Made by a program: the position numbers and the translations under genes. A DNA stretch of 64,000 nt from Escherichia coli (lineage in GTDB: Bacteria; Pseudomonadota; Gammaproteobacteria; Enterobacterales; Enterobacteriaceae): assembly GCF_046105845.1 (NCBI RefSeq), contig NZ_CP151004.1. One strand, 5' to 3'. The number at the start of each line of letters is the position of its first letter. Position 1 is the stretch's first letter. The notes under the pieces were generated by a model. The model was not told where the DNA came from, did no database searches, and saw only the letters and a list, made by a program, of their open reading frames with translations. Positions 7,042-38,490 of this stretch are shown here, piece by piece.

Positions 7042-8943
7042 ATGGCTGAATTCGAAACCACTTTTGCAGATCTGGGCCTGAAGGCTCCTATCCTTGAAGC
7101 CCTTAACGATCTGGGTTACGAAAAACCATCTCCAATTCAGGCAGAGTGTATTCCACATCTGCTGAATGGCCGCGACGTCCTGGGTATGGCCCAGACGGGG
7201 AGCGGAAAAACTGCAGCATTCTCTTTACCTCTGCTGCAGAATCTTGATCCTGAGCTGAAAGCACCACAGATTCTGGTGCTGGCACCGACCCGCGAACTGG
7301 CGGTACAGGTTGCTGAGGCAATGACGGATTTCTCTAAACACATGCGCGGCGTAAACGTGGTTGCCCTGTACGGCGGCCAGCGTTATGACGTGCAATTACG
7401 CGCCCTGCGTCAGGGGCCGCAGATCGTTGTCGGTACTCCGGGCCGTCTGCTGGATCACCTGAAACGTGGCACTCTGGACCTTTCTAAACTGAGCGGTCTG
7501 GTTCTGGATGAAGCTGACGAAATGCTGCGCATGGGCTTCATCGAAGACGTTGAAACCATTATGGCGCAGATCCCGGAAGGTCATCAGACCGCTCTGTTCT
7601 CTGCAACCATGCCGGAAGCGATTCGTCGCATTACCCGCCGCTTTATGAAAGAGCCGCAGGAAGTGCGCATTCAGTCCAGCGTGACTACCCGTCCTGACAT
7701 CAGCCAGAGCTACTGGACTGTCTGGGGTATGCGTAAAAACGAAGCACTGGTACGTTTCCTGGAAGCGGAAGATTTTGATGCGGCGATTATCTTCGTTCGT
7801 ACCAAAAATGCGACTCTGGAAGTGGCTGAAGCTCTTGAGCGTAACGGCTACAACAGCGCCGCGCTAAACGGTGACATGAACCAGGCGCTGCGTGAGCAGA
7901 CACTGGAACGCCTGAAAGATGGTCGTCTGGACATCCTGATTGCGACCGACGTTGCGGCCCGTGGCCTGGACGTTGAGCGTATCAGCCTGGTAGTTAACTA
8001 CGATATCCCGATGGATTCTGAGTCTTACGTTCACCGTATCGGTCGTACTGGTCGTGCGGGCCGTGCTGGCCGTGCGCTGCTGTTCGTTGAGAACCGTGAG
8101 CGTCGTCTGCTGCGCAACATTGAACGCACCATGAAGCTGACCATTCCGGAAGTTGAACTGCCGAACGCAGAACTGCTGGGCAAACGTCGTCTGGAAAAAT
8201 TCGCCGCTAAAGTACAGCAGCAGCTGGAAAGCAGCGATCTGGATCAATACCGTGCACTGCTGAGCAAAATTCAGCCGACTGCCGAAGGCGAAGAGCTGGA
8301 TCTCGAAACTCTGGCCGCCGCACTGCTGAAAATGGCACAGGGTGAACGTACTCTGATTGTTCCGCCAGATGCGCCGATGCGTCCGAAACGTGAATTCCGT
8401 GACCGTGATGACCGTGGTCCGCGCGATCGTAACGACCGTGGCCCGCGTGGTGACCGTGAAGATCGTCCGCGTCGTGAACGTCGTGATGTTGGCGATATGC
8501 AGCTGTACCGCATTGAAGTGGGCCGCGATGATGGTGTTGAAGTTCGTCATATCGTTGGCGCGATTGCTAACGAAGGTGACATCAGCAGCCGTTACATTGG
8601 TAACATCAAGCTGTTTGCTTCTCACTCCACCATCGAACTGCCAAAAGGTATGCCGGGTGAAGTGCTGCAACACTTTACGCGTACTCGCATTCTCAACAAG
8701 CCGATGAACATGCAGTTACTGGGCGATGCACAGCCGCATACTGGCGGTGAGCGTCGTGGCGGTGGTCGTGGTTTCGGTGGCGAACGTCGTGAAGGTGGTC
8801 GTGAAGGCGGTCGTAACTTCAGCGGTGAACGCCGTGAAGGTGGTCGTGGTGATGGTCGTCGTTTTAGCGGCGAACGTCGTGAAGGCCGCGCTCCGCGTCG
8901 TGATGACTCTACCGGTCGTCGTCGTTTCGGTGGTGATGCGTAA
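7042..8943 (+). CDS. deaD: Cold-shock DEAD-box ATP-dependent RNA helicase DeaD/CsdA
   Basis: Start at [13 protein letters not shown]; motifs GSGKTAAF (Walker A), [18 protein letters not shown]; Arg/Gly-rich repetitive C-terminal tail; ORF 6976..8943 is a 5' over-extension. Confidence 0.94.
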
Positions 8944-8985
8944 TCATCGCTGAACAGCGAACACAATCTGTAAAATAATATATAC

Positions 8986-9017
8986 AGCCCCGATTTTTAC
9001 CATCGGGGCTTTTTTTC
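8986..9017 (+). terminator. deaD intrinsic terminator
   Basis: agccccgat-ttttacc-atcggggct followed by ttttttt. Confidence 0.85.
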
Positions 9018-9025
9018 TGTCTTTT

Positions 9026-9044
9026 GTACTCGTGTACTGGTACA
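9026..9044. promoter_or_regulatory. TrpR operator-like GTAC repeats in the mtr promoter
   Basis: gtactcgtgtactggtaca, about 55 nt upstream of the mtr ATG; resembles the TrpR operator core. Confidence 0.6.
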
Positions 9045-9096
9045 GTGCAATGCATAACAACGCAGTCGCACTATTTTTCACTGGAGAAAAGCCCTC

Positions 9097-10341
9097 ATGG
9101 CAACACTAACCACCACCCAAACGTCACCGTCGCTGCTTGGCGGCGTGGTGATCATCGGCGGCACCATTATTGGCGCAGGGATGTTTTCTCTGCCAGTGGT
9201 TATGTCCGGGGCGTGGTTCTTCTGGTCAATGGCGGCGCTGATCTTTACCTGGTTCTGTATGCTGCATTCCGGCTTGATGATTCTGGAAGCTAACCTGAAT
9301 TATCGAATCGGTTCTAGCTTTGACACCATCACCAAAGATTTGCTGGGCAAAGGCTGGAACGTAGTCAACGGCATTTCCATTGCCTTTGTGCTCTATATCC
9401 TGACTTACGCCTATATTTCTGCCAGCGGTTCGATTCTGCATCACACCTTCGCGGAGATGTCGCTGAACGTCCCTGCACGGGCAGCTGGATTTGGTTTTGC
9501 ACTGCTGGTAGCGTTCGTGGTGTGGTTGAGTACGAAAGCTGTCAGCCGGATGACAGCAATTGTGCTGGGGGCGAAAGTCATTACTTTCTTCCTCACCTTC
9601 GGCAGCCTGCTGGGGCATGTACAGCCAACGACCTTGTTCAACGTTGCCGAAAGCAATGCGTCTTATGCGCCGTATCTGCTGATGACACTGCCATTCTGTC
9701 TGGCATCGTTTGGTTATCACGGTAACGTGCCGAGCCTGATGAAGTATTACGGCAAAGATCCGAAAACCATCGTGAAATGCCTGGTGTACGGTACGCTGAT
9801 GGCGCTGGCGCTGTATACCATCTGGTTGCTGGCGACGATGGGCAACATCCCTCGTCCGGAGTTTATCGGCATTGCCGAGAAGGGCGGTAACATTGATGTG
9901 CTGGTACAGGCATTAAGCGGCGTGCTGAACAGCCGTAGCCTGGATCTGCTGCTGGTCGTGTTCTCAAACTTTGCGGTAGCGAGTTCGTTCCTCGGCGTTA
10001 CGCTGGGTTTGTTTGACTATCTGGCAGATCTGTTTGGTTTCGATGACTCGGCTATGGGCCGCTTGAAAACAGCATTGTTGACCTTTGCACCGCCTGTTGT
10101 GGGTGGTCTGCTGTTCCCGAATGGATTCCTGTACGCCATTGGCTATGCTGGCTTAGCAGCTACCATCTGGGCGGCAATTGTACCGGCGCTGTTGGCCCGC
10201 GCATCGCGTAAACGCTTTGGCAGCCCGAAATTCCGCGTCTGGGGCGGTAAGCCGATGATTGCGCTGATTCTGGTGTTTGGCGTCGGCAACGCACTGGTGC
10301 ATATTTTATCGAGCTTTAATTTGCTGCCGGTGTATCAGTAA
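9097..10341 (+). CDS. mtr: Tryptophan-specific permease Mtr (aromatic amino acid HAAAP family)
   Basis: 414-aa polytopic membrane protein [33 protein letters not shown]... Confidence 0.96.
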
Positions 10342-10401
10342 TTGAACGAGCCGGATGAGCAGTTTTCATCCGGCAATAATTCACAAGTACACGAGATGGT
10401 A

Positions 10402-10932
10402 TCAAATAAACCCCTGTTTATTATAAAGTTCTTCAGCGAGAGCTTCCCCGTGCTCATCGAAAAAAGCATCGGCGATAGTTAAATTTTCTGCCTTAGGATT
10501 TGCCGTTATTTTGCTACCATTGGCATCAAATTCGAGCGCGATAGCGGTCTCCGAACCCCACCAGTAATAATAAATTAGCGCAAAATTATTTTCCCCTGGC
10601 GTAATAAACTTCTCGATTCCCCGCACACAGGCCATGAGTGGCATGAAGATTTCATAGCTCTCTGAGAGAAATATGTGATCCATCGTGACTATCTGTGTTT
10701 CTTTATTAAAGTTGATATGTTCGGCATAAATATTCTTTTCACTTTCACCAGAATTACAAGCTGCAAGATTGTTAAGCATTTTTGCAGGATCGCCGTACAA
10801 CCGCTGCTTCTCGATAAACCATGGCAACCAGTCGTCATGGTCTTTGATATTTGTTGCTGGTGAATGGAAAAACTTCTCGAGGTTACTCTCGGTAATATGT
10901 GCATGAAGAAAAAAGGAAGCCGGTTCACTCAT
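10402..10932 (-). CDS. Hypothetical 176-aa acidic cytoplasmic protein; no recognisable family; accessory relative to K-12
   Basis: Intact ORF in a visibly AT-rich segment, divergent from the neighbouring YafK-like gene; no signal peptide; aromatic-rich patch IYYYWWGSE; no catalytic motif recognised. Confidence 0.6.
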   Translation of the reverse strand: MSEPASFFLHAHITESNLEKFFHSPATNIKDHDDWLPWFIEKQRLYGDPAKMLNNLAACNSGESEKNIYAEHINFNKETQIVTMDHIFLSESYEIFMPLMACVRGIEKFITPGENNFALIYYYWWGSETAIALEFDANGSKITANPKAENLTIADAFFDEHGEALAEELYNKQGFI

Positions 10933-11089
10933 AATGATTTTCTCTGGTAATAAGTCGATTTGTTCATTTCTCTGTTTGGCGATGATAAAACGATGACTAT
11001 TTTATAAAAGTACAGAACTGGACCTTTTATCTATTTCATATCATAAGAAAATATATACAAGAACTGGCTCAGAATAAGCGGAATACGAA

Positions 11090-11809
11090 ATGGGGCGTAA
11101 AGGACTACTTGCTATTGTATTGTTGAGCCTGTTTATCGCCATGATTTTTCAATTTTTCTGGCCTGCCCCACACGATGAACACGTTTTCCTGCCAGTTGAA
11201 AAACCTGTCGCACCGTCTTTAAAAATCATTCATCCTGGTGACCAGTTATTTATCCGCATTCTGAAAGCGGAAGATAAGCTGGAACTGTGGGCAAGCACCA
11301 ACAACAAGCCTTACGAACTCTATAAAACCTGGACTATATGCGCGTGGTCTGGTGGCTTAGGGCCAAAACACAAACAGGGGGATGGTAAAAGCCCGGAAGG
11401 TTTTTATGCCACCAACAAAGGGTTGCTTAACCCAAACAGCCGCTATCATCTGGCATTTAATATTGGTTACCCGAATGCTTACGATCGGGCAAACGGCTAC
11501 ACCGGTGATTTCATTATGGTTCACGGGAACTGCGTTTCAGCGGGCTGCTATGCCATGACCGATGCTGGTATTGAAGAGATTTATCAACTGGTGGCGCAGG
11601 CGCTGAATAGCGGGCAGAAGAGCGTGCCGGTGCATATCTTCCCGTTTGCGATGAACGAAGAAAATATGCGCCAGGCGCAGGTATGGCCGGAATATAATTT
11701 CTGGCGTATGTTGAAGCCCGGCTATGATTACTTTGAAAAAAATCGCCGATTGCCAACCATCACCGTTGAAAACCGGCGTTATAAAATCAGCCCAACAATT
11801 CTTCCTTAA
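11090..11809 (+). CDS. YafK/DpaA-like L,D-transpeptidase-fold protein (paralog of the Lpp-peptidoglycan amidase family); accessory relative to K-12
   Basis: 239 aa with N-terminal hydrophobic segment [19 protein letters not shown]; motifs [39 protein letters not shown] (His/Cys of the YkuD-type active site), FPF and KPGYDYFE match my recollection of YafK. Confidence 0.7.
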
Positions 11810-22914: not shown

Positions 22915-23775
22915 ATGAAACAACACCAATCGGCGGATAATTCTCAGGGCCAGCTTTACATTGTACCGACGCCAATCGGCAATCTGGCGGATATCACCCA
23001 GCGTGCGTTGGAGGTATTACAGGCCGTTGATCTGATTGCCGCCGAGGATACGCGTCACACCGGTTTATTGCTGCAACATTTTGGGATTAATGCTCGGTTG
23101 TTTGCGCTGCACGACCATAACGAACAACAAAAAGCCGAAACGCTGCTGGCGAAGCTGCAAGAGGGGCAAAACATTGCGCTGGTTTCCGATGCCGGAACGC
23201 CGCTAATTAACGATCCTGGCTACCATCTGGTGCGTACCTGCCGTGAAGCGGGGATTCGCGTGGTGCCGCTACCCGGGCCGTGTGCTGCTATCACTGCGTT
23301 AAGCGCCGCGGGTTTACCATCCGATCGTTTTTGTTATGAAGGCTTTTTACCTGCCAAATCAAAAGGCCGCCGTGATGCGCTAAAAGCCATTGAAGCGGAG
23401 CCGCGCACGCTGATTTTTTATGAATCTACCCACCGTCTGTTAGATAGCCTGGAAGATATCGTTGCGGTATTAGGCGAATCCCGCTACGTGGTTCTGGCGC
23501 GTGAGCTGACCAAAACCTGGGAAACCATTCACGGCGCGCCCGTTGGCGAGCTGCTGGCGTGGGTCAAAGAAGATGAAAACCGTCGCAAAGGCGAAATGGT
23601 ACTGATTGTCGAAGGCCATAAAGCACAGGAAGAAGACTTACCCGCCGATGCCCTGCGCACGCTGGCGCTGCTACAGGCAGAACTGCCGCTGAAAAAAGCG
23701 GCGGCGCTGGCGGCAGAAATTCACGGCGTGAAGAAAAATGCGCTATATAAGTATGCGCTGGAGCAGCAGGGGTAA
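22915..23775 (+). CDS. rsmI: 16S rRNA C1402 2'-O-ribose methyltransferase RsmI
   Basis: 286-aa ORF; divergent from lpoA. Confidence 0.95.
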
Positions 23776-23790
23776 GCCTGCTGCTGGAAA

Positions 23791-24885
23791 TTACCTGACA
23801 ATAACCGTAATGGTAGCTGATGCTTTAAAAGGTCCGGTCGACAATACTCCACCGACCAGATTTACAGGATAAGCCTGAAAGTGTGTTGTTCCTGCTCCGG
23901 TTTTATCTAGCAGAATGATGCCTGGATTAAATGGAACATCTACTTGCCCTTTAGTCACATCCATAAGGCGGATACCAACATCAGGGACATCATCACTTTC
24001 ACGGCGTCTTGCGACTAAATTATATTGATTAACATAATCTGAACCTTCAATTTTCATATACAAGCTATTGTTAATTTGGGACATATCACCGCAATCATAG
24101 GTAATATCAAAGCTTACTGGAGTGTAACCTGTTGGCATCTGATTTTGTAGGGTGAAACGTTGAGCGCTAATAAATCCAAGATTTACATTAATGGTATCAC
24201 CTTGATTTATTTTGCAACTTTGAGGTACCGTAATTCGGCCTTGAATATAGATTTTAGCAATATCCTTAATGGGACGTGGTGCAGCAGAAGTACTTGTCCA
24301 CGCAGCCTGGACTGAAGCAATATGTGTTTCAGGGATATTCAGTTCACCCAAAAATGGCGTAGTGACGTATAGTGTAATCGTTGTATTTTTACCAATAGAA
24401 AAGTCTGATCCCCGAACATTGGCTGGGTCGGCCATGCACACACTATTGTTTTTGTTAGCATGGTAAGTACCAGTACCGTCTCTAAGCGGTGTATATGAAT
24501 TGCTTGGAACCATAACAGATGGATTACCAGGAATGTCGTTTATTTGGGTTTTAATATCCAGATTAGAATTCAGTCGATAGAAATCTCGTTCTTTACCTTG
24601 AGTTATTAATGCAGATGTTACTGTATAATACAGGTTAACTTTACTACCTGCCGGACAAGAGCAGTTTAAGGTGTAATTGCTCCCAATAGCTGAATTCTTT
24701 ACCACATAATCTTTGCCGGCAACATTATTATCTTGTGTCCAGTCCTCAGAAGCATCTGTCCGAAATTCACCTGTTCCTTCACAATCACCTGTTGCTGCCT
24801 TTACCGATGGGCTAAGTAACAGGGGGGAGACCACGGCAGCAATAGACAATAGTTGTTTAATCATTTTGAAACTCCCTAAAGACAC
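23791..24885 (-). CDS. yraK: Fimbrial adhesin-like protein YraK (chaperone-usher fimbriae)
   Basis: 364-aa ORF with signal peptide; last gene of the yraHIJK operon. Confidence 0.9.
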   Translation of the reverse strand: MSLGSFKMIKQLLSIAAVVSPLLLSPSVKAATGDCEGTGEFRTDASEDWTQDNNVAGKDYVVKNSAIGSNYTLNCSCPAGSKVNLYYTVTSALITQGKERDFYRLNSNLDIKTQINDIPGNPSVMVPSNSYTPLRDGTGTYHANKNNSVCMADPANVRGSDFSIGKNTTITLYVTTPFLGELNIPETHIASVQAAWTSTSAAPRPIKDIAKIYIQGRITVPQSCKINQGDTINVNLGFISAQRFTLQNQMPTGYTPVSFDITYDCGDMSQINNSLYMKIEGSDYVNQYNLVARRRESDDVPDVGIRLMDVTKGQVDVPFNPGIILLDKTGAGTTHFQAYPVNLVGGVLSTGPFKASATITVIVR

Positions 24886-27398
24886 TTTGCCGAATCACGA
24901 ATAATGGGGGTAGTGATGTTCGCGCTATCGTTCAGACTAAACGTAAACTGGCATTGTTGGTTTATTCCACTTCCCCAGCGAACCTTCCAGGTTTGTGGTT
25001 TTTTATTAATGCCGGAGAGATAAATAACTCCAGCTTCATCGACAATACTTTGTTGGAATTGGCCTTCATTACTGGCAACAGCACCAAAAGGAATGGGCTT
25101 ACCTTGGACGTCAGTTAGTGCTAATAGCACTCTGTGACCGGTTTGGGCATTAAAATTTGCAACGACAGCGGCGCCCTGTCCTGGCACGACAATCTTTGCA
25201 GTCTCCTGGACATCTACATTATCCGGCATTGTAGTAGTGTCTAAGGCAATACGATTTTCCTGATAAGCCGTTAAATAAGGGATGACGGCGTAACCAAAGT
25301 AATCGGTGGCAATACCAGGGTAATTTTTAACCCGAATATTAGATGCACCCTGGGTATCAATTACGGCAAATGTATTACCCAGCGGTTGTGAGAGAGTCAC
25401 CCCATGGGGGTGTGCGACAATTCCACCTGAAAGACCATAGCTGAACTGGCGACTGTTTGACGTGTAATCATAGTTGGCGTTAACAGTGCCATAAGCAGAG
25501 CGGTAACTACCAGAAAGCGTACTGCCGTTATTATTATTTTCCTGGTCCATTCGTTGTTTAAAGCTGTAACTTAATCGGTTGTCATCAAGGAAAGAACCGG
25601 TAATGCCAGTCTCATATTGAGTTGAACGGTATTTTTCATCAGTGACACGAAACGTAGCTTGTGCATTAGGTAACCAACGATCCAGAGGCAGACTAATACT
25701 AAAAAAGATTGCCCTATCACTATCGCGATCGGAATAATCTGTGAATTGTCCACTCACGCTGTAGCTGATGCCGGCAAGATAGCCGTTCAGTCCGGCAGAA
25801 TAATTGCGATCATTTTGTTCTGCTCCCCAGTATTCTCGTTGTGCACCTGAAATATAAAAACTGAGATTATCAGTCAGCGTTTGGTTAACGTTGAAAATCG
25901 CTTCGCTGCGTTGGCGATTGTTTACATTAATATCACGTTGGTTTGCGTCGGCAAAGGTAAAAAAAACTGAGTTGGAATAGCGCGAGTAACTAAGAGAAAG
26001 GCTTGTTCCTGTTTCGGGTATATCTTTAATATATTGAAAACGTAAACCTTCCCCGGTAAATTTTTCTTTATTTTCTAACTTCGTTTTGGCATAAGTTAAA
26101 TCAACGGAAAGTGCGCCCAAAATACTCAATGTGCTACCGATGCCTAATGCTGCTGCTTGATAATCCTTGGATCCAGTTACCCCACCATAAAGAGTGAAAA
26201 TATTAGTAAGGCCGTAAAATGCTGTGCCTTCGATGAACTCTGGTTCTTTACTATTAGATGACGGGTCTGCACGAAATCGCCCTGCTGTCATGCTATATAA
26301 AAGATGGCCTGGCCGTTGCATAACAGGAAGTGCTGAAAACGGCTGAGTAAATTGGCGAACGGTACCATCGGCTTCTTCAATTGTAACGTCTAAATCACCG
26401 CTAAATGAGGATGGATAGAGATCGTTGATTTCGAATGCTCCCGCCGGGACATTGCTTTGATAAATTGTATAGCCATTCTGGCGGATGGTGACTATTGCGC
26501 TGGTATTGGCAATCCCACGGATAATCGGTGCAAAACCTCGTAAGCTATTCGGTAACATGTTCTCGTCAGAATAAATTCTGGCACCCGTAAACTGAACGCT
26601 GGAAAAAATTGTGCCATCAGTGGCGCTTTCACCAAGCACTAATTGCGACTTTAAACTCTTAATATCACGCTGCAACCAACTATTAATACTATCCCAGCGA
26701 GTCTCATTACTGCTATGTGTCCACGTGGAGTAATTACGCAACCGCCATGGGCCGATATTGACTCCATTTTGCATATTGAGATAAAACCTTTCATTCTTTT
26801 CGCTGTTACTATAATAACTGTTCGAGCCACTAAAACTGTAATTGGTAAACAATACTGGAATACCATGATCCCACCTGGCGGGATCAACATAACCAGAAGG
26901 GTCACGCCGCAGGGCAATTTGTGGAATGTCCAGGATGAGAGTGCTATGGTTGAGGTCTATCTTTGTTTTGCTTCCAGGTACGGTTTTGGATAAATCTGTT
27001 ATCAGGGCGTTGTCATCAAGAGTATTTAGTGAATTTATTTCGTCAACTTTAAAACCCAATTCGCGTAAAAGACCAACGGTAAGCTGTGGGCGAATTTCTC
27101 CATTATCATCTATAGCAAAAGTGATTTTTCTCTGAGTCACCTTTTTTTTATTGATAACGATCTCAACATCATAATCACCGGGACTATGAGTATTTTTACC
27201 GGAGAAAGCAGATAAATCGCTTGCCTTTTGACCACTCTTTGTTGTTTCCAGCAATGAGGGATCAAAATAGTAATTGTCAGCAATGGCATGAAGAGGGGAC
27301 AGAACTCCACCAGTAATAAGAACAGGTAATACTGTTTTTAACCAGCAGGAAAGTGGTTTCATAACAGGTAAAGAGATGCATTTTATTTTGGTTTTCAT
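24876..27398 (-). CDS. yraJ: Fimbrial outer-membrane usher YraJ
   Basis: 840-aa usher-family protein. Confidence 0.93.
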   Translation of the reverse strand: MKTKIKCISLPVMKPLSCWLKTVLPVLITGGVLSPLHAIADNYYFDPSLLETTKSGQKASDLSAFSGKNTHSPGDYDVEIVINKKKVTQRKITFAIDDNGEIRPQLTVGLLRELGFKVDEINSLNTLDDNALITDLSKTVPGSKTKIDLNHSTLILDIPQIALRRDPSGYVDPARWDHGIPVLFTNYSFSGSNSYYSNSEKNERFYLNMQNGVNIGPWRLRNYSTWTHSSNETRWDSINSWLQRDIKSLKSQLVLGESATDGTIFSSVQFTGARIYSDENMLPNSLRGFAPIIRGIANTSAIVTIRQNGYTIYQSNVPAGAFEINDLYPSSFSGDLDVTIEEADGTVRQFTQPFSALPVMQRPGHLLYSMTAGRFRADPSSNSKEPEFIEGTAFYGLTNIFTLYGGVTGSKDYQAAALGIGSTLSILGALSVDLTYAKTKLENKEKFTGEGLRFQYIKDIPETGTSLSLSYSRYSNSVFFTFADANQRDINVNNRQRSEAIFNVNQTLTDNLSFYISGAQREYWGAEQNDRNYSAGLNGYLAGISYSVSGQFTDYSDRDSDRAIFFSISLPLDRWLPNAQATFRVTDEKYRSTQYETGITGSFLDDNRLSYSFKQRMDQENNNNGSTLSGSYRSAYGTVNANYDYTSNSRQFSYGLSGGIVAHPHGVTLSQPLGNTFAVIDTQGASNIRVKNYPGIATDYFGYAVIPYLTAYQENRIALDTTTMPDNVDVQETAKIVVPGQGAAVVANFNAQTGHRVLLALTDVQGKPIPFGAVASNEGQFQQSIVDEAGVIYLSGINKKPQTWKVRWGSGINQQCQFTFSLNDSANITTPIIRDSAKCL

Positions 27399-27450
27399 TA
27401 TTCCCTTATTTCCTTATTCCCTGTCATATGTATAAGTTTTGTATAAATAA

Positions 27451-28143
27451 TTATGGCAAAGTAGATGTATATGTATCCGTATTACCGCCATAGTCATTAA
27501 TGGCTGCCCATTTCACGATGTTTTCTGAAACTAATGGCAATGGTAATTGCTTATGTTCACCCGGTGCAATAAATTCTATTTTATCGGTAAAGTCGGTTTT
27601 TCCTACAGCCAGTCCTGAAAAAACAACGTAATATGCCGAAGGATTATATATCTCCAGTTGGTTGTTCTTCCTTGAGAATTTTAGGCCTTTATAGGCATCT
27701 GAAGGTCTACCGTCCATTTCTGATGGTCTGTAAAAGAGTTTAATGCGTGTTTTAAATACTAAAGTAAGTAGGTTCTTATCTTGCGTTTCTTTTTTATCGA
27801 CAGCAGGAATTGCACGGACGTTAATATAAAAAAGTGATTCTTTATCTCTCGGTAGATTGCCATCGGTTTTAATGATACGCAATGAAGAGTTGTCTCCGGC
27901 ATCAAGACGAAATAGCGGAGGGGTAATAATAAAAGGGCCGCGAGAAGAGTCATAGATATTTTCAACCCACGATTGTAATAAATATGGTGGTTTATCACTT
28001 CGATTAGTGACCGGCAATGCAGCTTCTTTTTTACTACCATCATAAACTACACGCGTTCTTTCCAGAAGGATTCCACCAGCCAGACTCTGGTTCACCCAGC
28101 CAGCTAATAGAAAAAGTATTGCAAACGATTTTTTAATCTTCAT
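27451..28143 (-). CDS. yraI: Periplasmic fimbrial chaperone YraI (PapD-like)
   Basis: 230-aa ORF with signal peptide. Confidence 0.92.
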
Positions 28144-28232
28144 CTTCTGTTACCGCTACGAAATAAAATTGTCTCTTTAACAGCAGACCGCTAAAGAGAC
28201 AAAATAAAGGATTATGAACTAATGACTAGTTA

Positions 28233-28805
28233 TCAACGATAATCAAGAGTTACATCCACAGTAGCATTAGCTTCACCGGGTTTGATTTTATCGGCTGTTG
28301 TGGTTGACACATAGTAAGCCGCTAAATCTAAATTCATCGTGGAACCAGTAATTGGGAAAGATATCTTTGGAACACTAAGTTTGTTAATTGCCATAGGTGT
28401 TTGAGCATCTTTTTCAATCCGAATACCAACACCTGTAGCCGCGGTATCTGGGTCCATACTTGTAACAGCAACTAACTCATTGTTATCACCGGTAGTTGCT
28501 CCGTTACGCGTTTCCAGCCATAACTGGAAAGACGCATCTTTAGTACCATCAATGTGATCCCAGGCTACCGTTGGGCAGTTTTTCAACGGAATAGTGAAAG
28601 GGATCGTAGGGGATTTATCCCCTTTAAACTTAAACTGATTAGCGGCATAGTGACCTAATTCAACATAAACTGTATCACCATTCGCAAATTCACAGACAGT
28701 GCCAAGAATTTCACCCGTGAATTCAATTTTTCCATCGGTTGCGGAGGCGCTACCGGCAAAAAGCGCCAGCAGGCCAGCGGCAACTGTCTTAGCTACTTTA
28801 CTCAT
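28233..28805 (-). CDS. yraH: Major fimbrial subunit YraH
   Basis: 190-aa fimbrial subunit with signal peptide; preceded by about 1 kb of AT-rich DNA. Confidence 0.9.
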   Translation of the reverse strand: MSKVAKTVAAGLLALFAGSASATDGKIEFTGEILGTVCEFANGDTVYVELGHYAANQFKFKGDKSPTIPFTIPLKNCPTVAWDHIDGTKDASFQLWLETRNGATTGDNNELVAVTSMDPDTAATGVGIRIEKDAQTPMAINKLSVPKISFPITGSTMNLDLAAYYVSTTTADKIKPGEANATVDVTLDYR

Positions 28806-29286
28806 AAGATAACCTTAGTCCTTGTAACTAGTACTTCGAATAAATATGAAATGTAAGATTCTTTTCAACAACAGAAACGATTATACCTACTGAAGCATGG
28901 AGTGGATAAAAAATAGTCATTTTTAAGAATATATTTATATTTCCTGAAGCTATTTAAAAACCATATATATTAGTATTGATTATGTTATGATGTGAATGTA
29001 GTAAGACTAAAAGGGTAATTATAAGTATAATTCAATGGGTTGATAGCAGTTATTGTAATGATAATCACTAATATTGACTTTTGTAGTTATGAGTTGTGAA
29101 CTGTAAGAATAAAATGTAATATGTTATGACGTTTAATAGTTGATGTTGTTAAATATAAGCTTAATTAAACTATATGATATTGAAAAAGTGGGGATGGATA
29201 ACTAAAACTATTTTGCCTGTATATACGAGCAGTGGAAGGGGTTTGCACAGGAAGCCCTTTCTTCTGTTGAACAGGCCTCCCCTACG

Positions 29287-29401
29287 ATGGTTGCAGAACG
29301 GGCGTTCTTCTGCGAGTGCTCTGACACGTTATCGATAGCCTTCACTGGCCGTGAATCAGACGATTATCAATACGAGTTAAGAGAATATTTGACAATGTCA
29401 T
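29287..29401 (-). pseudogene. Relic of a paralogous mannose-family PTS operon: 19-codon IIB-like start followed by a stop and an IID-like internal fragment
   Basis: Minus strand reads ATG ACA TTG TCA AAT ATT CTC TTA ACT CGT ATT GAT AAT CGT CTG ATT CAC GGC CAG TGA (MTLSNILLTRIDNRLIHGQ*), close to the agaB N-terminus; the next ~55 nt resemble agaD sequence near 30867-30945. Confidence 0.6.
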
Positions 29402-29454
29402 GTTTTTATTTCCTATCATCCATTTCACCTTTATTTGGTTTATCAGAGGGCAAT

Positions 29455-29482
29455 AAAAAAGGCAGATAATTAATTATCTGCC
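29455..29482 (-). terminator. Perfect-palindrome hairpin with flanking A/T runs (probable terminator for minus-strand transcripts)
   Basis: aaaaaa-ggcagataatt/aattatctgcc. Confidence 0.45.
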
Positions 29483-29852
29483 TGATGTGTCATGCTTTTT
29501 TTGCATCCGTTCTCATGTTTTTACCAGAAAATATCTTTGTGTGCCGAAGTTAAAACGTAAGTAATTTCACCGTTTTGCACATAGTGGCAGCAACCTTCAA
29601 TAATGATTCTGGCATTGCAAGCAAAATGATTGACCCATTCGGTCGCTGTGTGTCCGCTTTTTTCGTTGGCGGGTTTTGTTCTGATTACTGAACAACGTAA
29701 CGTGTTTATCTATAAATTAAACAGTGAACATAATTTCATTTTTAAGTGAAATTATGTTCAAGTTGATTACAGATTACTTAACTTAAAATATAGTTAATGA
29801 AGTTAAAGTATTGGTTTTGGCGTATTAGTCGTATTTCTGATAAAGAAAGTGG

Positions 29853-30617
29853 TTATGCTTTGCTTCTCTCTATTAAACAAATAAAGTTACTGTGCAGCCA
29901 TAAAAACGAAGCCGGGATAGCGGTGGAGACTTTAGCCGTGAGAAAACGTTCTGTCGCATCCTGCTTTCCTTCGCCAGTCACCAGTAACAAAACTTCGCGG
30001 GCACTGAGAATATCCTTCAGGCCTAAGGTGATCCCACGAATCACGGGACGGCCCGCGGTTTTTAACATCTCATGTTGCTGTGTTCTGGCATCAAGTTGAC
30101 TGATATGGCAGGCCGGTTGCAGGCTTTCTCCCGGTTCGTTCAGCCCAAGATGACCGTTTTTCCCCAACCCGAGAACGCATAAATCCAGACCGCCTTTGCG
30201 CGCAATCAGGTTCGTTACCCGTTCGCACTCTGTCTCATTTATCTCTTCGGAGCGAAAGCTGATGAGCTGGTCTTCACGCAGCCCCAGCGGCTGCACGATA
30301 TGCTGTTGTAGGAAAGTTTCGCAGGTGCCAGGCATCGTTAATGGCAGATCCACCCATTCGTCGAGCTTCACGAAGGTGAGCTGGCTGACATCAACCTGCT
30401 GCTGGTGGATTTTTTCTACCAGATAATGATACGTCAGTAATGGCGTGGCTCCGGTCGCCAGGCAAATCACGGCATCCGGTTTGCTACGGATCACGGCCAA
30501 TAAATATTCGCTGGCACGTTCACTTAACGCCGTATAGTTTTCAACTTGTTGAAGGGTTTGCACAGGATGAAATTCCTTAAGTAAAGAGGCACCGCCAGAC
30601 GCGGTGCCTCGTTCCAT
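29853..30617 (-). CDS. agaI: Galactosamine-6-phosphate deaminase/isomerase AgaI
   Basis: 254-aa ORF of the NagB/AgaI family; last gene of agaS-kbaY-agaBCDI. Confidence 0.92.
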   Translation of the reverse strand: MERGTASGGASLLKEFHPVQTLQQVENYTALSERASEYLLAVIRSKPDAVICLATGATPLLTYHYLVEKIHQQQVDVSQLTFVKLDEWVDLPLTMPGTCETFLQQHIVQPLGLREDQLISFRSEEINETECERVTNLIARKGGLDLCVLGLGKNGHLGLNEPGESLQPACHISQLDARTQQHEMLKTAGRPVIRGITLGLKDILSAREVLLLVTGEGKQDATERFLTAKVSTAIPASFLWLHSNFICLIERSKA

Positions 30618-31409
30618 TTACAAAATGCCGAATGCGGAACAAACAATAGAGAGCACAAAAGTCACGCCGATTAACAGCACCGGATGCGCTTTTTTCACCC
30701 GCAGGAAGTAATACATCAGCAGGGTGTAGGCCATCGGTAAAATGTTCGGGAAGACTTTATCGAAGAAATCCTGTTGCAGCGCGACGCTGTGGGTACTGTC
30801 GATGGCAAACGATGTCACCACGTTAATATGCACATACGAAGCGATCAGCCCGCCGATTACCGTGATCCCGAGGATGGTTGCCGAACGAGCAATCATCTGC
30901 GAGTTCTCTCGCACTTTATCGATCGCCTTCACGCCGACTGAATAACCGACGTGGGTCCAGCCGACGCGCAGGAAGAAGATAAGCAGGTAAACGGCGAAAA
31001 ATAGAATCGGCCCCAGCAAGTTTCCCTGGCTGGCAAATGATGAGCAAATTCCCGCCATAATCGGCAATAAGGTAAACCAGAAAATCGCATCGCCAATCCC
31101 GGCGATTGGGCCAAACAGTGCCACTTTGAGGCCTTTAATGGTGTCGCGGTTTTCTCCTTTTTCTTCCATCGAAATTAATAACCCCATCAGGAATCCGACC
31201 AGATTCGGGTGGGTATTAATAAATTCGAGGTTATCTTTCATCGCCGCGCTTAGGCCCGGTTTGTCGTCCTTATAAATCTTTTTCAGGATCGGCAACATCG
31301 CCCAGGTAAAACCGCCCGCCTGCATCCTTTCGTAGTTAAAGCTTGCTTGTAGCAGTGACGAACGAAAGCCCAGACGGGTGATATCTTTTTTACTGATTTC
31401 AGATCCCAT
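30618..31409 (-). CDS. agaD: PTS galactosamine-specific EIID component AgaD
   Basis: 263-aa product from MGSEISKKDITRLGFRSSLL; the 317-aa ORF in the track over-extends into agaC. Confidence 0.93.
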   Translation of the reverse strand: MGSEISKKDITRLGFRSSLLQASFNYERMQAGGFTWAMLPILKKIYKDDKPGLSAAMKDNLEFINTHPNLVGFLMGLLISMEEKGENRDTIKGLKVALFGPIAGIGDAIFWFTLLPIMAGICSSFASQGNLLGPILFFAVYLLIFFLRVGWTHVGYSVGVKAIDKVRENSQMIARSATILGITVIGGLIASYVHINVVTSFAIDSTHSVALQQDFFDKVFPNILPMAYTLLMYYFLRVKKAHPVLLIGVTFVLSIVCSAFGIL

Positions 31410-32202
31410 TGCTGTAGTCCTCTTCTTCATTTTTACTGGCAACGGGCTGCGGTTGCGCTTGCTGCCGGGATTTCGCATTGAAAAACTCATACACCGCAAA
31501 GCCTGCGCCCAGTACGGCAACCGGCAACAGGTTGCTGACCTGGATGTAGCAAACAAACAGGAAGCCGGCAATCAGGTAAGGGATATATTGCGCTTTGAAC
31601 ATCACGCGCAGCAGCAAGCCAAAACCAACGGCAGGCAGAATACCGCCAGCCACTTCAAAGCCGTGGGTCAGCCAGGCGGGCATCGCTTTCACCAGCGCCT
31701 GCATCGCCCCTTGTGCCAGGTAAGTACAGAGGAAAGCAATCACCGCATACGCTGAAGCAACGATGAGCATCGTTGTCCAGTTAAGTCGGGAAAACGCTGC
31801 CGTATCCGCTTCTTTCGCGCATTTATCGGCTTTGGTCATAAATAATGAGAAAGCAGAATAGAAGAACAGAATGACATACTGCATTAACAAACTAAACGGC
31901 AGGCCAAGACCAATTGCTGTTTTGGCATCAACGCCCGTAGACCATGCAATGACGGTGGTCATCAGACCCGCCATAATCGGGTTGGGCGGCTGAACACCAC
32001 CTGCAGGGGTTAATCCGGCGAAAGCCAACTCTGTCAGACCACCGGTAATTAAGCCAGTCTGAATATCACCGAGAATAGCGCCAGTTAGGGTACAAACGAT
32101 TATCGGGCGGAATAAAAATAAGGCTTCCAGCCAAAAATCAATCCCCAGAACGAAAACTAACGCCGCCAGGGATAATCCCTGAAGTAGGGTTATTTCATGC
32201 AT
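31399..32202 (-). CDS. agaC: PTS galactosamine-specific EIIC component AgaC
   Basis: 267-aa membrane protein. Confidence 0.93.
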   Translation of the reverse strand: MHEITLLQGLSLAALVFVLGIDFWLEALFLFRPIIVCTLTGAILGDIQTGLITGGLTELAFAGLTPAGGVQPPNPIMAGLMTTVIAWSTGVDAKTAIGLGLPFSLLMQYVILFFYSAFSLFMTKADKCAKEADTAAFSRLNWTTMLIVASAYAVIAFLCTYLAQGAMQALVKAMPAWLTHGFEVAGGILPAVGFGLLLRVMFKAQYIPYLIAGFLFVCYIQVSNLLPVAVLGAGFAVYEFFNAKSRQQAQPQPVASKNEEEDYSNGI

Positions 32203-32240: not shown

Positions 32241-32717
32241 TTAGTCAGGGATTTGTTCTTTTTGATCGCCAGGGACGTCCTGAATGAAAACATTCACGCC
32301 ACGTTGTTTAATAAAACGTAAGTCCGTGAGATCCTGGTCATCGACATAAACTTTACTGCTGATTTGCTTTTTCCCTTCCGAGAAATGCATATTGCCGACG
32401 TTGACATCTTTCAGGTCAATACCACCTTCTACCAATTTACGTACCGTTTGTGGCGTACGGCAAATCAGGAAGATCTTTTGATGCGGTGCAGCTTTGCCGA
32501 TGACGTTAATGGTTTTTTCGATAGTAAAGAAACGAATGCCAAAGCCGTAGGTTTCCGCGGTAATACCCATTAATTTCTGTTGAATATCATCGTTAGCGAC
32601 AACATCATCCACGACTACCAGCAGATTTGCACCGATGGTGGATGTCCAGGTCACGCCAACCTGACCGTGAACCAGACGGTTATCAATACGGGTTAAGAGA
32701 ATATTTGGACTGCTCAT
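32241..32717 (-). CDS. agaB: PTS galactosamine-specific EIIB component AgaB
   Basis: 158-aa ORF MSSPNILLTRIDNRLVHGQVGVTW (phospho-His region). Confidence 0.94.
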   Translation of the reverse strand: MSSPNILLTRIDNRLVHGQVGVTWTSTIGANLLVVVDDVVANDDIQQKLMGITAETYGFGIRFFTIEKTINVIGKAAPHQKIFLICRTPQTVRKLVEGGIDLKDVNVGNMHFSEGKKQISSKVYVDDQDLTDLRFIKQRGVNVFIQDVPGDQKEQIPD

Positions 32718-32883
32718 TGTGTAATCCTCACCATAAAGTTGAATAATATAATTTTTTTAAATATATTATTATTGCGATATTTTACTGATGTATTTATTAA
32801 GGTTTAGTTATCTCCTTTACCATTAAGGCACTCCCCGATATTAATCGGGAAGTACATTGGGATAAATCATAAAAAAATAATGA

Positions 32884-33756
<873 letters not shown>

Positions 33757-35260: not shown

Positions 35261-36394
35261 TCAAAACGAAGCTAATTGACCCTGAATCCAGATTTGTTGC
35301 ACATGCAGCCCGCTATCCAGCGCAACGACGCTGGCGCGTTTGCCCGGTTTAAGCGATCCCAGAACATCATCAACACCCAGCATACGCGCCGGATGCAGCG
35401 ACGCCATATGGATGGCTTCCGCAGGCGTTACGTCCGTCAACTCGACCATGTTGCGCACTGCCGCATCGACAGACAGCGTACTGCCCGCCAGCCCACCGGA
35501 CGCGGTACGGACAACGCCACCGTGCATCTGCACTTCTTCACCACATAACGTATAGCGACCATCCGGCATCCCTGCTGCCTGCATCGCGTCGGTGATGAGC
35601 ACGATTCTCTCTTTCGCACAGCAACAACACAGCGACATCGCCGCCGGATGCACATGATTACCATCGGCTATCAGTTCCAGCCAGGCGCGCTTGTCCGTTA
35701 ATCCCGCGCCAACCATTCCCGGTTCGCGGTGATGTAAACCTGTCATCCCGTTATAGCAATGCACCAAGCCGTCGGCACCAGCGTCAAACGCGGCACGGGT
35801 TTGTTGCCAGGTCGCCGCGCTATGCCCCAGCATCACCCGTACGTTTTGCTGTTTAAGATGGCGGATGGCCTGCAATGCCCCTTCTTTTTCCGGTGCCAGC
35901 GCTACCACGCGCAAGGTGTGCTGAGAAACGGCAATCAACTGATCCAGCTCGGCAATTTCCAGCTCGCGAAACAGCTCCGGCGGATGCGCGCCTTTATTCT
36001 GCGGCGTGAAGTATGGTCCTTCGAGATAACTCCCCAGCACTTGCGCACCAGGTCCGCCGCGTTGGCAACGTTGAGCAATACGTTTCAGCGCCGCATGAAT
36101 GGTATTAAGCGGAGCGGTTACGGTGGTCGGTAACCAACTGCCGACACCTTCGCGTGCTTTGTGCATTGCCAGCTTGTCGAGCACATCCGGCGCGTCATCC
36201 ATTACATCAACGCCCGCACCACCGTGTACATGGGTGTCGATGTAAGCGGGGCAGAGCAGTTCCGCATCGCGTTCAGTCACGCCCACTGGAATCGGTTCGA
36301 TTGCTGCGATGACACCGTCAGCAATACGCAACTGATGGTCATCGAGCCATCCCTCTTCAGTCAGCAGCCTTCTGGCGCGCAGAACGTGTGTCAT
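35261..36394 (-). CDS. agaA: N-acetylgalactosamine-6-phosphate deacetylase AgaA, full length
   Basis: 377-aa product from MTHVLRARRLL; start ATG overlaps the agaF stop (ATGA); metal-binding HxH motif (DTHVHGG) present; intact, unlike the truncated K-12 allele. Confidence 0.92.
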   Translation of the reverse strand: MTHVLRARRLLTEEGWLDDHQLRIADGVIAAIEPIPVGVTERDAELLCPAYIDTHVHGGAGVDVMDDAPDVLDKLAMHKAREGVGSWLPTTVTAPLNTIHAALKRIAQRCQRGGPGAQVLGSYLEGPYFTPQNKGAHPPELFRELEIAELDQLIAVSQHTLRVVALAPEKEGALQAIRHLKQQNVRVMLGHSAATWQQTRAAFDAGADGLVHCYNGMTGLHHREPGMVGAGLTDKRAWLELIADGNHVHPAAMSLCCCCAKERIVLITDAMQAAGMPDGRYTLCGEEVQMHGGVVRTASGGLAGSTLSVDAAVRNMVELTDVTPAEAIHMASLHPARMLGVDDVLGSLKPGKRASVVALDSGLHVQQIWIQGQLASF

Positions 36395-36825
36395 ATTCCT
36401 TCCTCGACCGGACATTCTTCATGGCAGCGGCCTAACTCGTCCACCAAACTGGTCAGCCCACGGTGTCCACACTCCAGCGCCTGCACACGGAACTCTTCAC
36501 CGCTTAACCCTTCGCGCTCCAGCACCATCTCCAGTAGCAGTTGCAAATTGGTGCCGGTGATCACTTCACAGCCCGGTTTTTGTATCGCCAGCGTTGAAGC
36601 TACGCGAAACGGCGTGCCGCCCAGCAAATCCGTCAGAAAAACAATGCCGTCTTCACAATCCAGTTGGGCGAAGGCCTCTTCAAGCTGCGATGTAAGCAGC
36701 GCGGTGCTTGAGGTTTCCGGAAAATCGATGGCGATAAACTGCGATTGCTCGCCGAGGATTTGCTTCATTGCTTTTTCCATGCCGCTGGCAAATCCGCCAT
36801 GCCCTGTCAAAATAATACTTAACAT
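36391..36825 (-). CDS. agaF: PTS N-acetylgalactosamine-specific EIIA component AgaF
   Basis: 144-aa ORF MLSIILTGHGGFASGM...; absent from K-12. Confidence 0.93.
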   Translation of the reverse strand: MLSIILTGHGGFASGMEKAMKQILGEQSQFIAIDFPETSSTALLTSQLEEAFAQLDCEDGIVFLTDLLGGTPFRVASTLAIQKPGCEVITGTNLQLLLEMVLEREGLSGEEFRVQALECGHRGLTSLVDELGRCHEECPVEEGI

Positions 36826-36842
36826 CTAATACCTCATTGTAT

Positions 36843-37727
36843 TTAAAGGAAATGACAGAATTTACCGACGATGCCGAGAACCACGGTCACTGCAATCAGG
36901 CGCAGCGGACTCCAGCCGCGGCGTACCAGCCAGAACATGGTCAGGGTGTAGACCAGCGGTAAGAAGGCAGGCATCAGTTTGTCGATAACATCAGCCTGTA
37001 ACTTAACCACTGCGTCGCCCGCTGTGATTTCCAGCGTGGTGCTTAAACGAACATAGGTTGCCACCAGCGCGCCGATTACCGTCATCCCAACGATAGACGC
37101 AGCATGGCCGACTTTTTTGGTATTCGCTTTAATGAGTGGAATCGCCGCCACGCCCATGCGGTAAGCATAATGCGCCAGACCAAAACGCAGCCCCAGGTGT
37201 ACCACGTTGAACAGCACAATAAAGACGACTGCGCCAAGAATGGAGCCTTGCAATGCCAGACTGGCTCCAATCCCGCCACAAATCGGCAGTAGCGTTAGCC
37301 AGAACATTGCATCGCCAATCCCGCCAAGCGGCGCACCGACGGCAATTTTGGTGCTCTGAATACTGTTAACGTCCTGCTTAGAACGCTCCATCGCAAGGAT
37401 AATGCCGATAACAAACGTCACCAGAAACGGATGGGTATTGAAGAAACCCATATGCCCCTTCATGGCGCGCGCCAGGTCGCGTTTATTAGTGTGGATCTTT
37501 TTCAGAGCAGGCAGCAGACCGTACAACCAGCCAGAAGCCTGCATACGTTCGTAGTTAAAAGACGCTTGTAACAGCATGGAACGCCAGGCGACGCGGTTGA
37601 TATCTTTTTTCGTCAGCTCCGCGCCAATGCTCTGATCTTCATACACGTTTTCATTGACGCCAGTCAGCAATGTTTCTTCGTTTTCACTGACGTTCGGCAG
37701 GGTGGTTTGATTAGATGCCATCTTCAA
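36843..37727 (-). CDS. agaE: PTS N-acetylgalactosamine-specific EIID component AgaE
   Basis: 294-aa ORF paralogous to AgaD; absent from K-12. Confidence 0.92.
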   Translation of the reverse strand: MKMASNQTTLPNVSENEETLLTGVNENVYEDQSIGAELTKKDINRVAWRSMLLQASFNYERMQASGWLYGLLPALKKIHTNKRDLARAMKGHMGFFNTHPFLVTFVIGIILAMERSKQDVNSIQSTKIAVGAPLGGIGDAMFWLTLLPICGGIGASLALQGSILGAVVFIVLFNVVHLGLRFGLAHYAYRMGVAAIPLIKANTKKVGHAASIVGMTVIGALVATYVRLSTTLEITAGDAVVKLQADVIDKLMPAFLPLVYTLTMFWLVRRGWSPLRLIAVTVVLGIVGKFCHFL

Positions 37728-38490
37728 ATTCCTCTTTCTGTGCCGCAGGTTGAGTCGGTTCAGGAGATTTACGCAGCAGATCGATCAGCGCCATCGCCAG
37801 CGCGGCGGCAGCAATAGCCAGCACCGGTAACTTGAGCCAGGCGGCGGCAACAAAGCCCAGGATGAAGTAGGGGATGTAGACGTTTTTCATCATGATTTTC
37901 AGCAGCACGGCAAAACCGATTGCTGGCATGATGCCGCCCGCGACGCCGAGGCCGTCGATTAATCGTTGCGGCAGGACATCAATGATGGTTTTGGCATGTT
38001 CTGCGCCGAAGTAGATAGGCAGGAAAGCGCAGAGAAAATAGAAAGTGCCGAGTGCCAGCAATGCCAGATAGTTCACGCGTTCAATGCCGCGTGTATCGGC
38101 GTTCTCCGCCATCCGGTCGCAGCGAGACATCACGCCAGACATCACCGAGAACAGGAAGGTAATCCCCATCTGTACTGCAACAGCGAAAGGTACGGCGACA
38201 CCGACCGCGACATCGGGTTTCACGCCAGTAGTAATGGCAAACGCCGTGCCGACGATAGTACCGATAATCACGTTAGGCGGTTGTGCGCCTGCCAGCGGGG
38301 CCAGCCCCATCCACACCAGTTCCAGCGTACCGCCGGTTAAAATACCGGTATGCAGATCGCCAAGTACCAGCCCGACCAACGGGCCGAGGACCACCGGGCG
38401 GTGCATATGGGTTAGGCCGTTAAACATATCCAGGCCAGCGATAAAGGCGATAATGCCCAACGCGAATGCCTGCAACAGACTGATTTCCAT
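37711..38490 (-). CDS. agaW: PTS N-acetylgalactosamine-specific EIIC component AgaW, full length
   Basis: 259-aa ORF paralogous to AgaC; intact here, truncated in K-12. Confidence 0.92.
   Translation of the reverse strand: MEISLLQAFALGIIAFIAGLDMFNGLTHMHRPVVLGPLVGLVLGDLHTGILTGGTLELVWMGLAPLAGAQPPNVIIGTIVGTAFAITTGVKPDVAVGVAVPFAVAVQMGITFLFSVMSGVMSRCDRMAENADTRGIERVNYLALLALGTFYFLCAFLPIYFGAEHAKTIIDVLPQRLIDGLGVAGGIMPAIGFAVLLKIMMKNVYIPYFILGFVAAAWLKLPVLAIAAAALAMALIDLLRKSPEPTQPAAQKEEFEDGI

Follow-up and report, generated by a model that had tools for sequence, protein, structure and literature searches.

What occupies the 1,047-bp spacer (28806-29852) between agaI and a yraH-like fimbrial operon in this E. 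coli chromosome, and to what the traces of PTS genes inside it once belonged, is the question raised by this locus; the K-12 counterpart of the spacer is 400 bp long and mostly unrelated in sequence. The DNA analyzed, here called the window, is a 64,000-nt chromosomal segment in which the aga/gam cluster lies on the minus strand. A first-pass annotation of the window had noticed the start of a IIB gene joined to an internal piece of a IID gene, and had read the pair as what remains of a once-complete, separate paralogous mannose-family PTS operon. Our analysis leads to a different parent: 29280-29661 is non-coding pseudogene debris, about 380 bases in all, probably from an additional copy of the galactosamine-uptake (Gam PTS) operon in its malY'-linked form.

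The agaI-yraH spacer and its setting

Every gene of the aga/gam cluster is intact in the window, unlike in K-12. The members kbaZ, agaV, agaW, agaE, agaF, agaA and agaS are accompanied on the minus strand by kbaY (32884-33744) and by the resident copies of agaB (32241-32717), agaC (31399-32202) and agaD (about 30618-31409), the last three of which reportedly encode a mannose-family PTS with specificity for galactosamine (Brinkkötter et al. 2000). The final intact gene of the cluster is agaI (29853-30617, minus strand), an ORF of 254 aa, and downstream of the cluster the fimbrial operon begins at 28805 with a yraH-like gene encoding 190 aa (28233-28805, minus strand). K-12-like identity in agaI (97.6%) breaks off at 29872, 20 nt short of the stop codon. 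This point is one limit of a 6.1-kb block (23772-29872) that contains the fimbrial operon and the spacer, relic included; the other limit, at 23772, is the end of rsmI. Both flanks are 97.6-97.9% identical to K-12 and O145, and inside the block identity drops to 65-71% with K-12 and to 80.7% with Escherichia sp. MOD1-EC7003. The chromosome outside the block is K-12-like, and the block, yraH-like gene included, is a divergent allele.

The spacer had been described as very AT-rich; its two ends have 24-27% GC, and an island of 35-46% GC at 29200-29700 coincides with the relic. Directly downstream of agaI lies AT-rich spacer proper (29662-29852, minus strand), inside which 17+17 nt form a strong AT-rich hairpin at 29725-29760 (fold z=-5.5). 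In this part, 29683-29733 is 86% identical over 51 nt to the agaI-yraH spacer of MOD1-EC7003, and 29690-29761, the stretch that contains the hairpin, is 73% identical over 73 nt to that of K-12. At the opposite end, 28806-28940 (minus strand) is the presumed yraH promoter region; the 215 nt at 28726-28940, which include the first 80 nt of the yraH-like gene, are 71% identical to K-12 yraH and its upstream region, and promoter-like matches in the spacer occur at chance level (5 found against 5.2 expected). Because 29683-29733 and 28806-28940 match the MOD1-EC7003 and K-12 agaI-yraH spacers, the relic and a further 339 bp of AT-rich DNA (28941-29279; 24-36% GC, not assigned to a strand) are embedded in an otherwise normal spacer. 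Those 339 bp have no detectable homology to any sequence fetched, and blastx and BLASTN returned no gene fragments within them.

Identity and decay of the gene fragments

Read along the minus strand, the relic consists of the 3' end of malY', a predicted terminator within an intergenic region, the start of agaB and an internal piece of agaD. The malY' fragment (29498-29661) was identified by blastx (E=4e-16), alignment and translation as residues 334-388 of a 390-residue MalY/PatB-family (C-S lyase-like) protein; in alignment it represents the final 55 codons of the gene, collinear with the O145 locus, and it carries a 1-nt deletion frameshift near 29566 plus an in-frame stop. This upstream half of the relic, to about 29661, is absent from the first-pass annotation. 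The malY'-agaB intergenic region (29402-29497, minus strand) holds a hairpin at 29460-29483 and a T run at 29454-29459. Next come codons 1-19 of agaB, encoding PTS EIIB-Gam (29345-29401, minus strand; translation and BLASTN). Translation of 29401-29342 on the minus strand yields MTLSNILLTRIDNRLIHGQ and then a stop, in agreement with the ATG-started 19-codon frame reported earlier, and the TGA stop itself (29344-29342) is made by the junction of the IIB and IID sequences. The last piece (29280-29345, minus strand) is an internal segment of agaD, encoding residues 160-181 of PTS EIID-Gam in a frame that differs from that of the agaB piece.

Comparison with the resident genes bears out the resemblances first noted. 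The window's own agaB start (32661-32707) is matched by 29345-29391 at 91.5% over 47 nt (BLASTN, E=2e-13), and a hand count over all 57 nt of the agaB piece gives 82.5%, which makes the original estimate of about 85 percent a fair one. The adjacent segment, 29280-29345, is 81.8% identical over 66 nt to an internal part of agaD (30867-30932; BLASTN, E=8e-13), and its protein reading, VKAIDNVSEHSQKNARSATIVG, shares 16 of 22 residues with VKAIDKVRENSQMIARSATILG at AgaD 160-181. Matches to these two pieces occur in the agaB and agaD genes of about 5,300 E. coli genomes. Nucleotide identity is 77-92% across the set of agaB alleles compared, and for agaD it is 80-85%. When the alignment is extended to the paralogues of the cluster, agaB and agaD remain the best matches: agaV reaches 78% over 50 nt, and agaE gives no BLASTN match, AgaE having ~6 of 22 residues in common by eye. 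The relic begins with MTL-, as does the malY'-linked agaB allele of O145 (MTLPN), and not with the MSSPN of resident agaB.

Little coding capacity is left in these fragments. There remain 19 of 158 codons of AgaB, 22 of 263 of AgaD and 55 of 390 of MalY'; for the PTS this amounts to 41 of about 690 codons, with agaC absent and the frames broken. Of a functional mannose-family EIIB (Pfam PTSIIB_sorb, ~150 residues) the relic has residues 1-19 and then a stop; of a functional EIID (Pfam EIID-AGA, a membrane domain of ~260 residues) it has residues 160-181, in the wrong frame and with no start codon; and of the full Aminotran_1_2 domain of a functional MalY/PatB PLP-dependent C-S lyase it has residues 334-388, interrupted by the frameshift and stop. 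No transporter can be encoded here, and no present-day function is expected of the coding fragments. What is found instead is what defines a pseudogene, namely homology to functional genes, disrupted frames, relaxed substitutions and an uninterrupted counterpart in a related genome. The conserved His of ..RLIHGQ is kept in the AgaB piece, and nothing after it.

In the 317 nt common to all three, the relic agrees with O145 at 79.5% and with MOD1-EC7003 at 78.1% of positions, those two being 89.3% identical to each other, and the changes unique to each sequence number 47 in the relic, 12 in O145 and 16 in MOD1-EC7003. The counts that enter the tests of relaxed selection by codon position and substitution type are small: in the malY' part, relic and O145 differ 11/8/15 times at codon positions 1/2/3, against 2/1/7 for the functional orthologues of O145 and MOD1-EC7003, and the changes in the relic are AT-biased, with GC-to-AT at 26 of 114 sites and AT-to-GC at 15 of 167. 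This malY' pattern is consistent with neutral decay. The MalY' residues of the relic are nearest to Escherichia proteins (39-41 of 55 identical), rather than to those of Kluyvera, Salmonella or Citrobacter. Together with the long relic branch and the evenly spread substitutions, this argues for an old, decaying Escherichia sequence and not for a recent import from another genus.

Counterparts elsewhere and the probable scars of deletion

In O145:H28, the malY' 3' end, the intergenic region and the agaB start are 79.8% identical to 29345-29660 over 321 nt (E=1e-76), well beyond the short low-complexity stretch to which the similarity might have been confined. The same interval matches 31 E. coli genomes (O145:H28 and others) at about 80-81% over ~320 nt, and the matched loci are annotated there as 'MalY/PatB family protein' followed by 'PTS sugar transporter subunit IIB'. 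Loci of this type run from kbaY through a malX-like PTS IIBC gene, a MalY/PatB-like gene, a truncated agaB pseudogene, a LysR gene and an MBL hydrolase gene to rsmI, with agaCDI and yraHIJK absent. The truncated IIB, which RefSeq lists as 'PTS sugar transporter subunit IIB, incomplete', is agaB itself (MTLPNILLTRIDNRLVHGQVGVTWTSTIGANLLVVVDDVVASDNIQQ...). The O145:H28-type locus, present in 31 complete genomes, thus shares with the relic the malY' 3' end, the terminator hairpin, an agaB start in MTL- and a truncated agaB. The two differ in what else has survived: malX' and malY' are intact in O145:H28 and agaB' retains 47 codons, whereas the window retains only 55 codons of malY'; conversely, the window has intact agaBCDI and fimbriae, of which agaCDI and the yra fimbriae are absent from the O145:H28 type. 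Since the relic and the O145:H28 agaB' relic are only 80% identical, neither is recently derived from the other.

An intact counterpart of the relic gene order, the object of a search proposed with the first-pass annotation, exists in MOD1-EC7003 (NZ_PTRE01000040.1; locus L006), where kbaY-malX'-malY'-agaB-agaC-agaD-agaI-yraH..rsmI is full length throughout and the stretch equivalent to 29345-29660 is 78.3% identical to the relic. It is a single copy: the sole agaBCD of this genome lies upstream of agaI, with an array of seven 115-bp REP-like units (BIME array) between agaD and agaI, and no counterpart was found downstream of agaI. The position of this counterpart relative to agaI therefore differs from that of the relic. 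Homology of the relic to both O145 and MOD1-EC7003 stops exactly at 29345, the IIB/IID junction, and at its other edge at about 29660. A MalY' scan of a genome collection with one genome per species gave 19 loci, mapped by tblastn. Kluyvera, Enterobacter, Citrobacter sp. R56, RIT691 and Aeromonas have agaS-kbaY-malX'-malY' without a following agaBCDI, and malY'-agaB adjacency was seen in Escherichia only. The kbaY-malX'-malY' arrangement is widespread in Enterobacteriaceae, and malX'-malY' has been lost from most E. coli. A simple malX'-malY' deletion as the origin of the K-12 order was considered and rejected, because the two types have unrelated sequences at the 3' end of kbaY, in the kbaY-agaB spacer and in the opening codons of agaB.

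Projected onto the MOD1-EC7003 locus, the relic edges at the IIB/IID junction map to positions 11316 (agaB codon 19) and 13044 (agaD codon 160) of L006, so that 1,727 bp (~1.73 kb) are absent from the relic relative to this genome. That the IIB start joined to mid-IID is a deletion scar, as first proposed, agrees with this comparison. The parental agaB reads ...CACGGTCAGGTTGGCGTGACC and the parental agaD ...TATTCAGTCGGCGTGAAGGCG at the breakpoint, where the relic has ...CACGGCCAGTGAAGGCT; TCAG and GGCGTGA adjoin the breakpoint in both agaB and agaD. The junction would fit a microhomology-mediated internal deletion, accompanied or followed by the loss of 6-7 nt. Around the relic, no transposon or IS ends and no target-site duplications were seen.

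The 11-bp palindrome reported at 29455-29482 is real and perfect, and its coordinates need a small correction: it lies at 29460-29483 and comprises 12+12 nt of 100% complementarity. On the minus strand it is followed by TTTTTT (29454-29459), it scores as an intrinsic terminator, and its predicted fold has a minimum free energy of -14.7 kcal/mol (z=-3.0). The palindrome is the predicted terminator of malY' and no independent feature. A run of 34 nt that takes in hairpin and T run is identical to O145:H28, against 73% identity in the rest of the region; by simulation an identical run of this length has P about 0.02, a statistic computed post hoc. This conservation hints that the predicted terminator may still stop read-through from the aga genes before the fimbrial operon, and the hairpin is the only part of the relic likely to retain activity.

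When the spacer was run in near and in distant mode against the 5,426 complete E. coli genomes, the whole spacer and divergent block came back from one genome, that of strain MEW (spacer 98.9% identical). An identical YraH-like protein marks further carriers, and all 10 of the 10 contigs listed with it carry the 1,047-bp spacer, as does strain MEW; draft E. coli genomes were sampled through such exact-protein look-ups only. Twelve spacer copies compared with one another have 19 variable sites, evenly spread. The relic is fixed in the lineage that carries this YraH-like protein, a rare lineage of E. coli. A contiguous malY'-agaB-agaC probe matched none of the 5,426 complete genomes, and neither the complete E. 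coli genomes nor the genome collection (probed through MalY' only) nor metagenomes yielded a second copy, intact or larger than the relic, downstream of agaI. A metagenome scan with a 22-mer from the conserved terminator returned one contig only, of the O145 type. Relatives of the fimbrial allele at 63-76% identity have no homology to the relic, and MalY' homologues at 85-97% identity lie either in an O145-type context or next to an unrelated downstream gene. A literature search found no description of a malY'-agaB-agaD relic.

Origin of the relic and competing explanations

We propose that the source segment was an Escherichia-type malX'-malY'-agaB-agaC-agaD, in which genes for a MalX-like PTS IIBC and a MalY/PatB-like protein lie between kbaY and agaB, and that a second such copy would formerly have stood downstream of agaI, within the agaI-yraH spacer. 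The most likely source of that copy would be a tandem duplication in which the early agaI-yraH spacer became joined to the 3' part of malY', with the junction at about 29661-29683; an illegitimate insertion of foreign DNA would be less likely. The relic is in direct orientation and follows agaBCDI, and the flanking AT-rich spacers are too diverged to place the junction within 29661-29683. At least three deletions would then have shrunk the copy, one removing everything upstream of MalY' codon 334, one taking out the 1,727 bp that span agaB codon 20 through agaD codon 159, with TCAG...GGCGTGA microhomology at the site, and one removing everything past agaD codon 181. The remnant would afterwards have drifted neutrally and with an AT bias over a long time. 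The block as a whole probably entered the lineage, or persists in it, through homologous recombination, with one crossover beside rsmI and another in the 3' end of agaI. That a complete copy once stood at exactly this position is what such a series of events would imply.

How much of this history is needed depends on how the fragments came together. A single illegitimate recombination or break-repair event, perhaps the one that brought the divergent fimbrial allele, could have placed 316 nt of a malY'-agaB junction and 66 nt of agaD in the spacer as filler, without a full second operon ever having existed. In favour of this, the relic draws on only these two source segments, the locus, which exists in at least three structural alleles, is a recombination hot spot, and the searches turned up neither an intermediate nor an intact second copy; the decay of the relic is heavy, however, which speaks for an old event, and for an event of such age the missing intermediates are uninformative. 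The pieces also keep operon order and orientation, collinear with the upstream aga genes, as stepwise deletion predicts and random capture does not require, and the microhomology where agaB meets agaD is in keeping with an internal deletion, so we regard filler capture as unlikely. The reading that started this work, a distinct once-complete mannose-family PTS operon with its own IIB, IIC and IID and another sugar specificity that was deleted down between agaI and yraH, is improbable and largely refuted. It would account for a IIB start joined to a IID fragment with an IIC-sized interval gone, and for fragments only about 80-90% identical to resident agaB and agaD; yet that divergence is explained by neutral decay, given the even codon positions and the long relic branch, and the fragments are nearer to agaB and agaD than to agaV and agaE, the only paralogues in the cluster. 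They are agaB and agaD themselves, and the agaB piece is joined without a gap to the tail of malY', its predicted terminator and the intergenic region, sequences that lie ahead of the genuine agaB in O145:H28 and MOD1-EC7003.

A present-day role for the segment, as a peptide made from the 19-codon ORF or as a small RNA or regulatory element for the fimbrial operon, seems very improbable. The ORF has an ATG with an AGGA Shine-Dalgarno-like motif 9 nt upstream, its 60 nt hold no SNPs among the 12 spacer copies, and the terminator hairpin is perfectly conserved. About one SNP would be expected in 60 nt, however, and zero is hence not significant; the ORF is the AgaB N-terminus ended by a stop that the junction created, it sits just downstream of a predicted terminator, promoter-like sites are no more frequent than chance, the relic region has no match in Rfam, and the substitution pattern is neutral. 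Chance resemblance deserves mention since the surrounding spacer has 24-27% GC and AT-rich sequence yields spurious short matches, but it has practically no probability left: the E-values of 1e-76 (malY'-agaB), 2e-13 (agaB) and 8e-13 (agaD), together with an island of 35-46% GC that is not of low complexity, refute it.

A decayed additional copy of the malY'-linked Gam PTS operon therefore remains the preferred reading, and the relic is as such an unannotated, ordinary pseudogene remnant that implies no new mechanism or function. It is proof that the malY'-linked form was once present in this lineage or in the donor of the fimbrial allele. The 3' end of the aga/gam region, from kbaY to rsmI, is a hot spot of recombination and deletion, for which E. 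coli has at least three structural alleles. A bolder version, which we think unlikely, would make the relic a survivor from an ancestral Escherichia that carried two Gam-PTS operons in tandem, agaBCDI-malX'-malY'-agaBCD, from which the K-12, O145 and MOD1 alleles arose by alternative deletions; the malY' terminator would have been recruited to insulate the aga operon from an H-NS-type AT-rich fimbrial promoter region. If this were true, the relic would offer a datable landmark in the history by which the aga/gam regulon was assembled.

Two known systems help to place the relic. The agaBCD operon of the E. coli aga/gam regulon encodes a mannose-family PTS specific for galactosamine (Hu et al. 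2013, PMC3668189). The PTS pieces of the relic have the same order and orientation as in this operon, at 80-92% nucleotide identity, and differ in lying downstream of agaI, beside an intact resident agaBCD. The 2.3-kb agaW'-agaA' deletion of K-12 is well known (PMC3668189) and is likewise an internal scar in the aga/gam regulon, one in which truncated PTS and catabolic genes are joined and function is lost. That deletion is recent, annotated and located in the primary copy, whereas the scar in the window is old, heavily decayed, unannotated and in a redundant copy. The relic is useful mainly as a record of rearrangement at this locus and as a caution for annotation. RefSeq places no feature in the spacer of strain MEW; the 19-codon ORF should not be called a gene, and a pseudogene-fragment label would be possible.

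The malX'-malY' pair and the kbaY-agaB region

In Kluyvera, Enterobacter, Citrobacter sp. R56, strain RIT691, and Aeromonas, kbaY is followed on its 3' side by a MalX-like PTS IIBC gene (malX') and then by a MalY/PatB-like C-S lyase gene (malY'), the kbaY-malX'-malY' region lying at ~7400-11170 in each of L007-L021, the loci of other genera from the MalY' scan. These two genes seem to be a conserved addition to the 3' end of the aga cluster, one lost by most E. coli.

The K-12-type arrangement (window 32718-32906) was compared with the O145-type locus L001 and the Escherichia sp. MOD1-EC7003 locus L006. From ~22 nt before the end of kbaY, through the spacer that separates this gene from agaB, to about codon 9 of agaB, it showed no similarity to the kbaY-malX' or malY'-agaB regions of either type. 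This lack of similarity rules out a simple deletion as the origin of the arrangement common in E. coli.

The O145-type allele carries a LysR regulator and an MBL-fold hydrolase (L001 9884-11866; L042 11462-13438) in place of agaCDI and the yra fimbriae. Anti-Pycsar_Apyc1 is among the precomputed Pfam matches of this hydrolase.

The fimbrial block and the flanks of agaI

The yraHIJK-like fimbrial operon (window 23772-29872) is a hyperdivergent allele, with nucleotide identity of 65-68% to K-12 and 80.7% to MOD1-EC7003, set in a K-12-like background (97.6%). Identity breaks off sharply on both sides, where rsmI ends and 20 nt into agaI. In other genera, Citrobacter among them, related fimbrial operons adjoin rsmI and have different upstream neighbours.

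Directly 3' of agaI lies an AT-rich 17+17-nt hairpin (window 29725-29760; fold z=-5.5), kept in part in the K-12 and MOD1 spacers, which probably serves as agaI's own terminator or as a regulatory site. In the agaD-agaI interval of MOD1-EC7003, a tandem array repeats a 115-bp REP/BIME-like unit seven times, with 96% matches (L006 13412-14218).

Intactness of the aga cluster

Unlike K-12, which carries a 2.3-kb agaW'-agaA' deletion, the window strain retains agaW, agaE, agaF, and agaA intact (window 35261-38490), so an Aga+ phenotype is predicted for it, and possibly a Gam+ one. In E. coli GCA_013899545.1, the kbaZ-agaVWE position is taken by Mu-like transposase and MuB genes (L043 1-3866), which looks like a Mu-type prophage inserted into the aga cluster.
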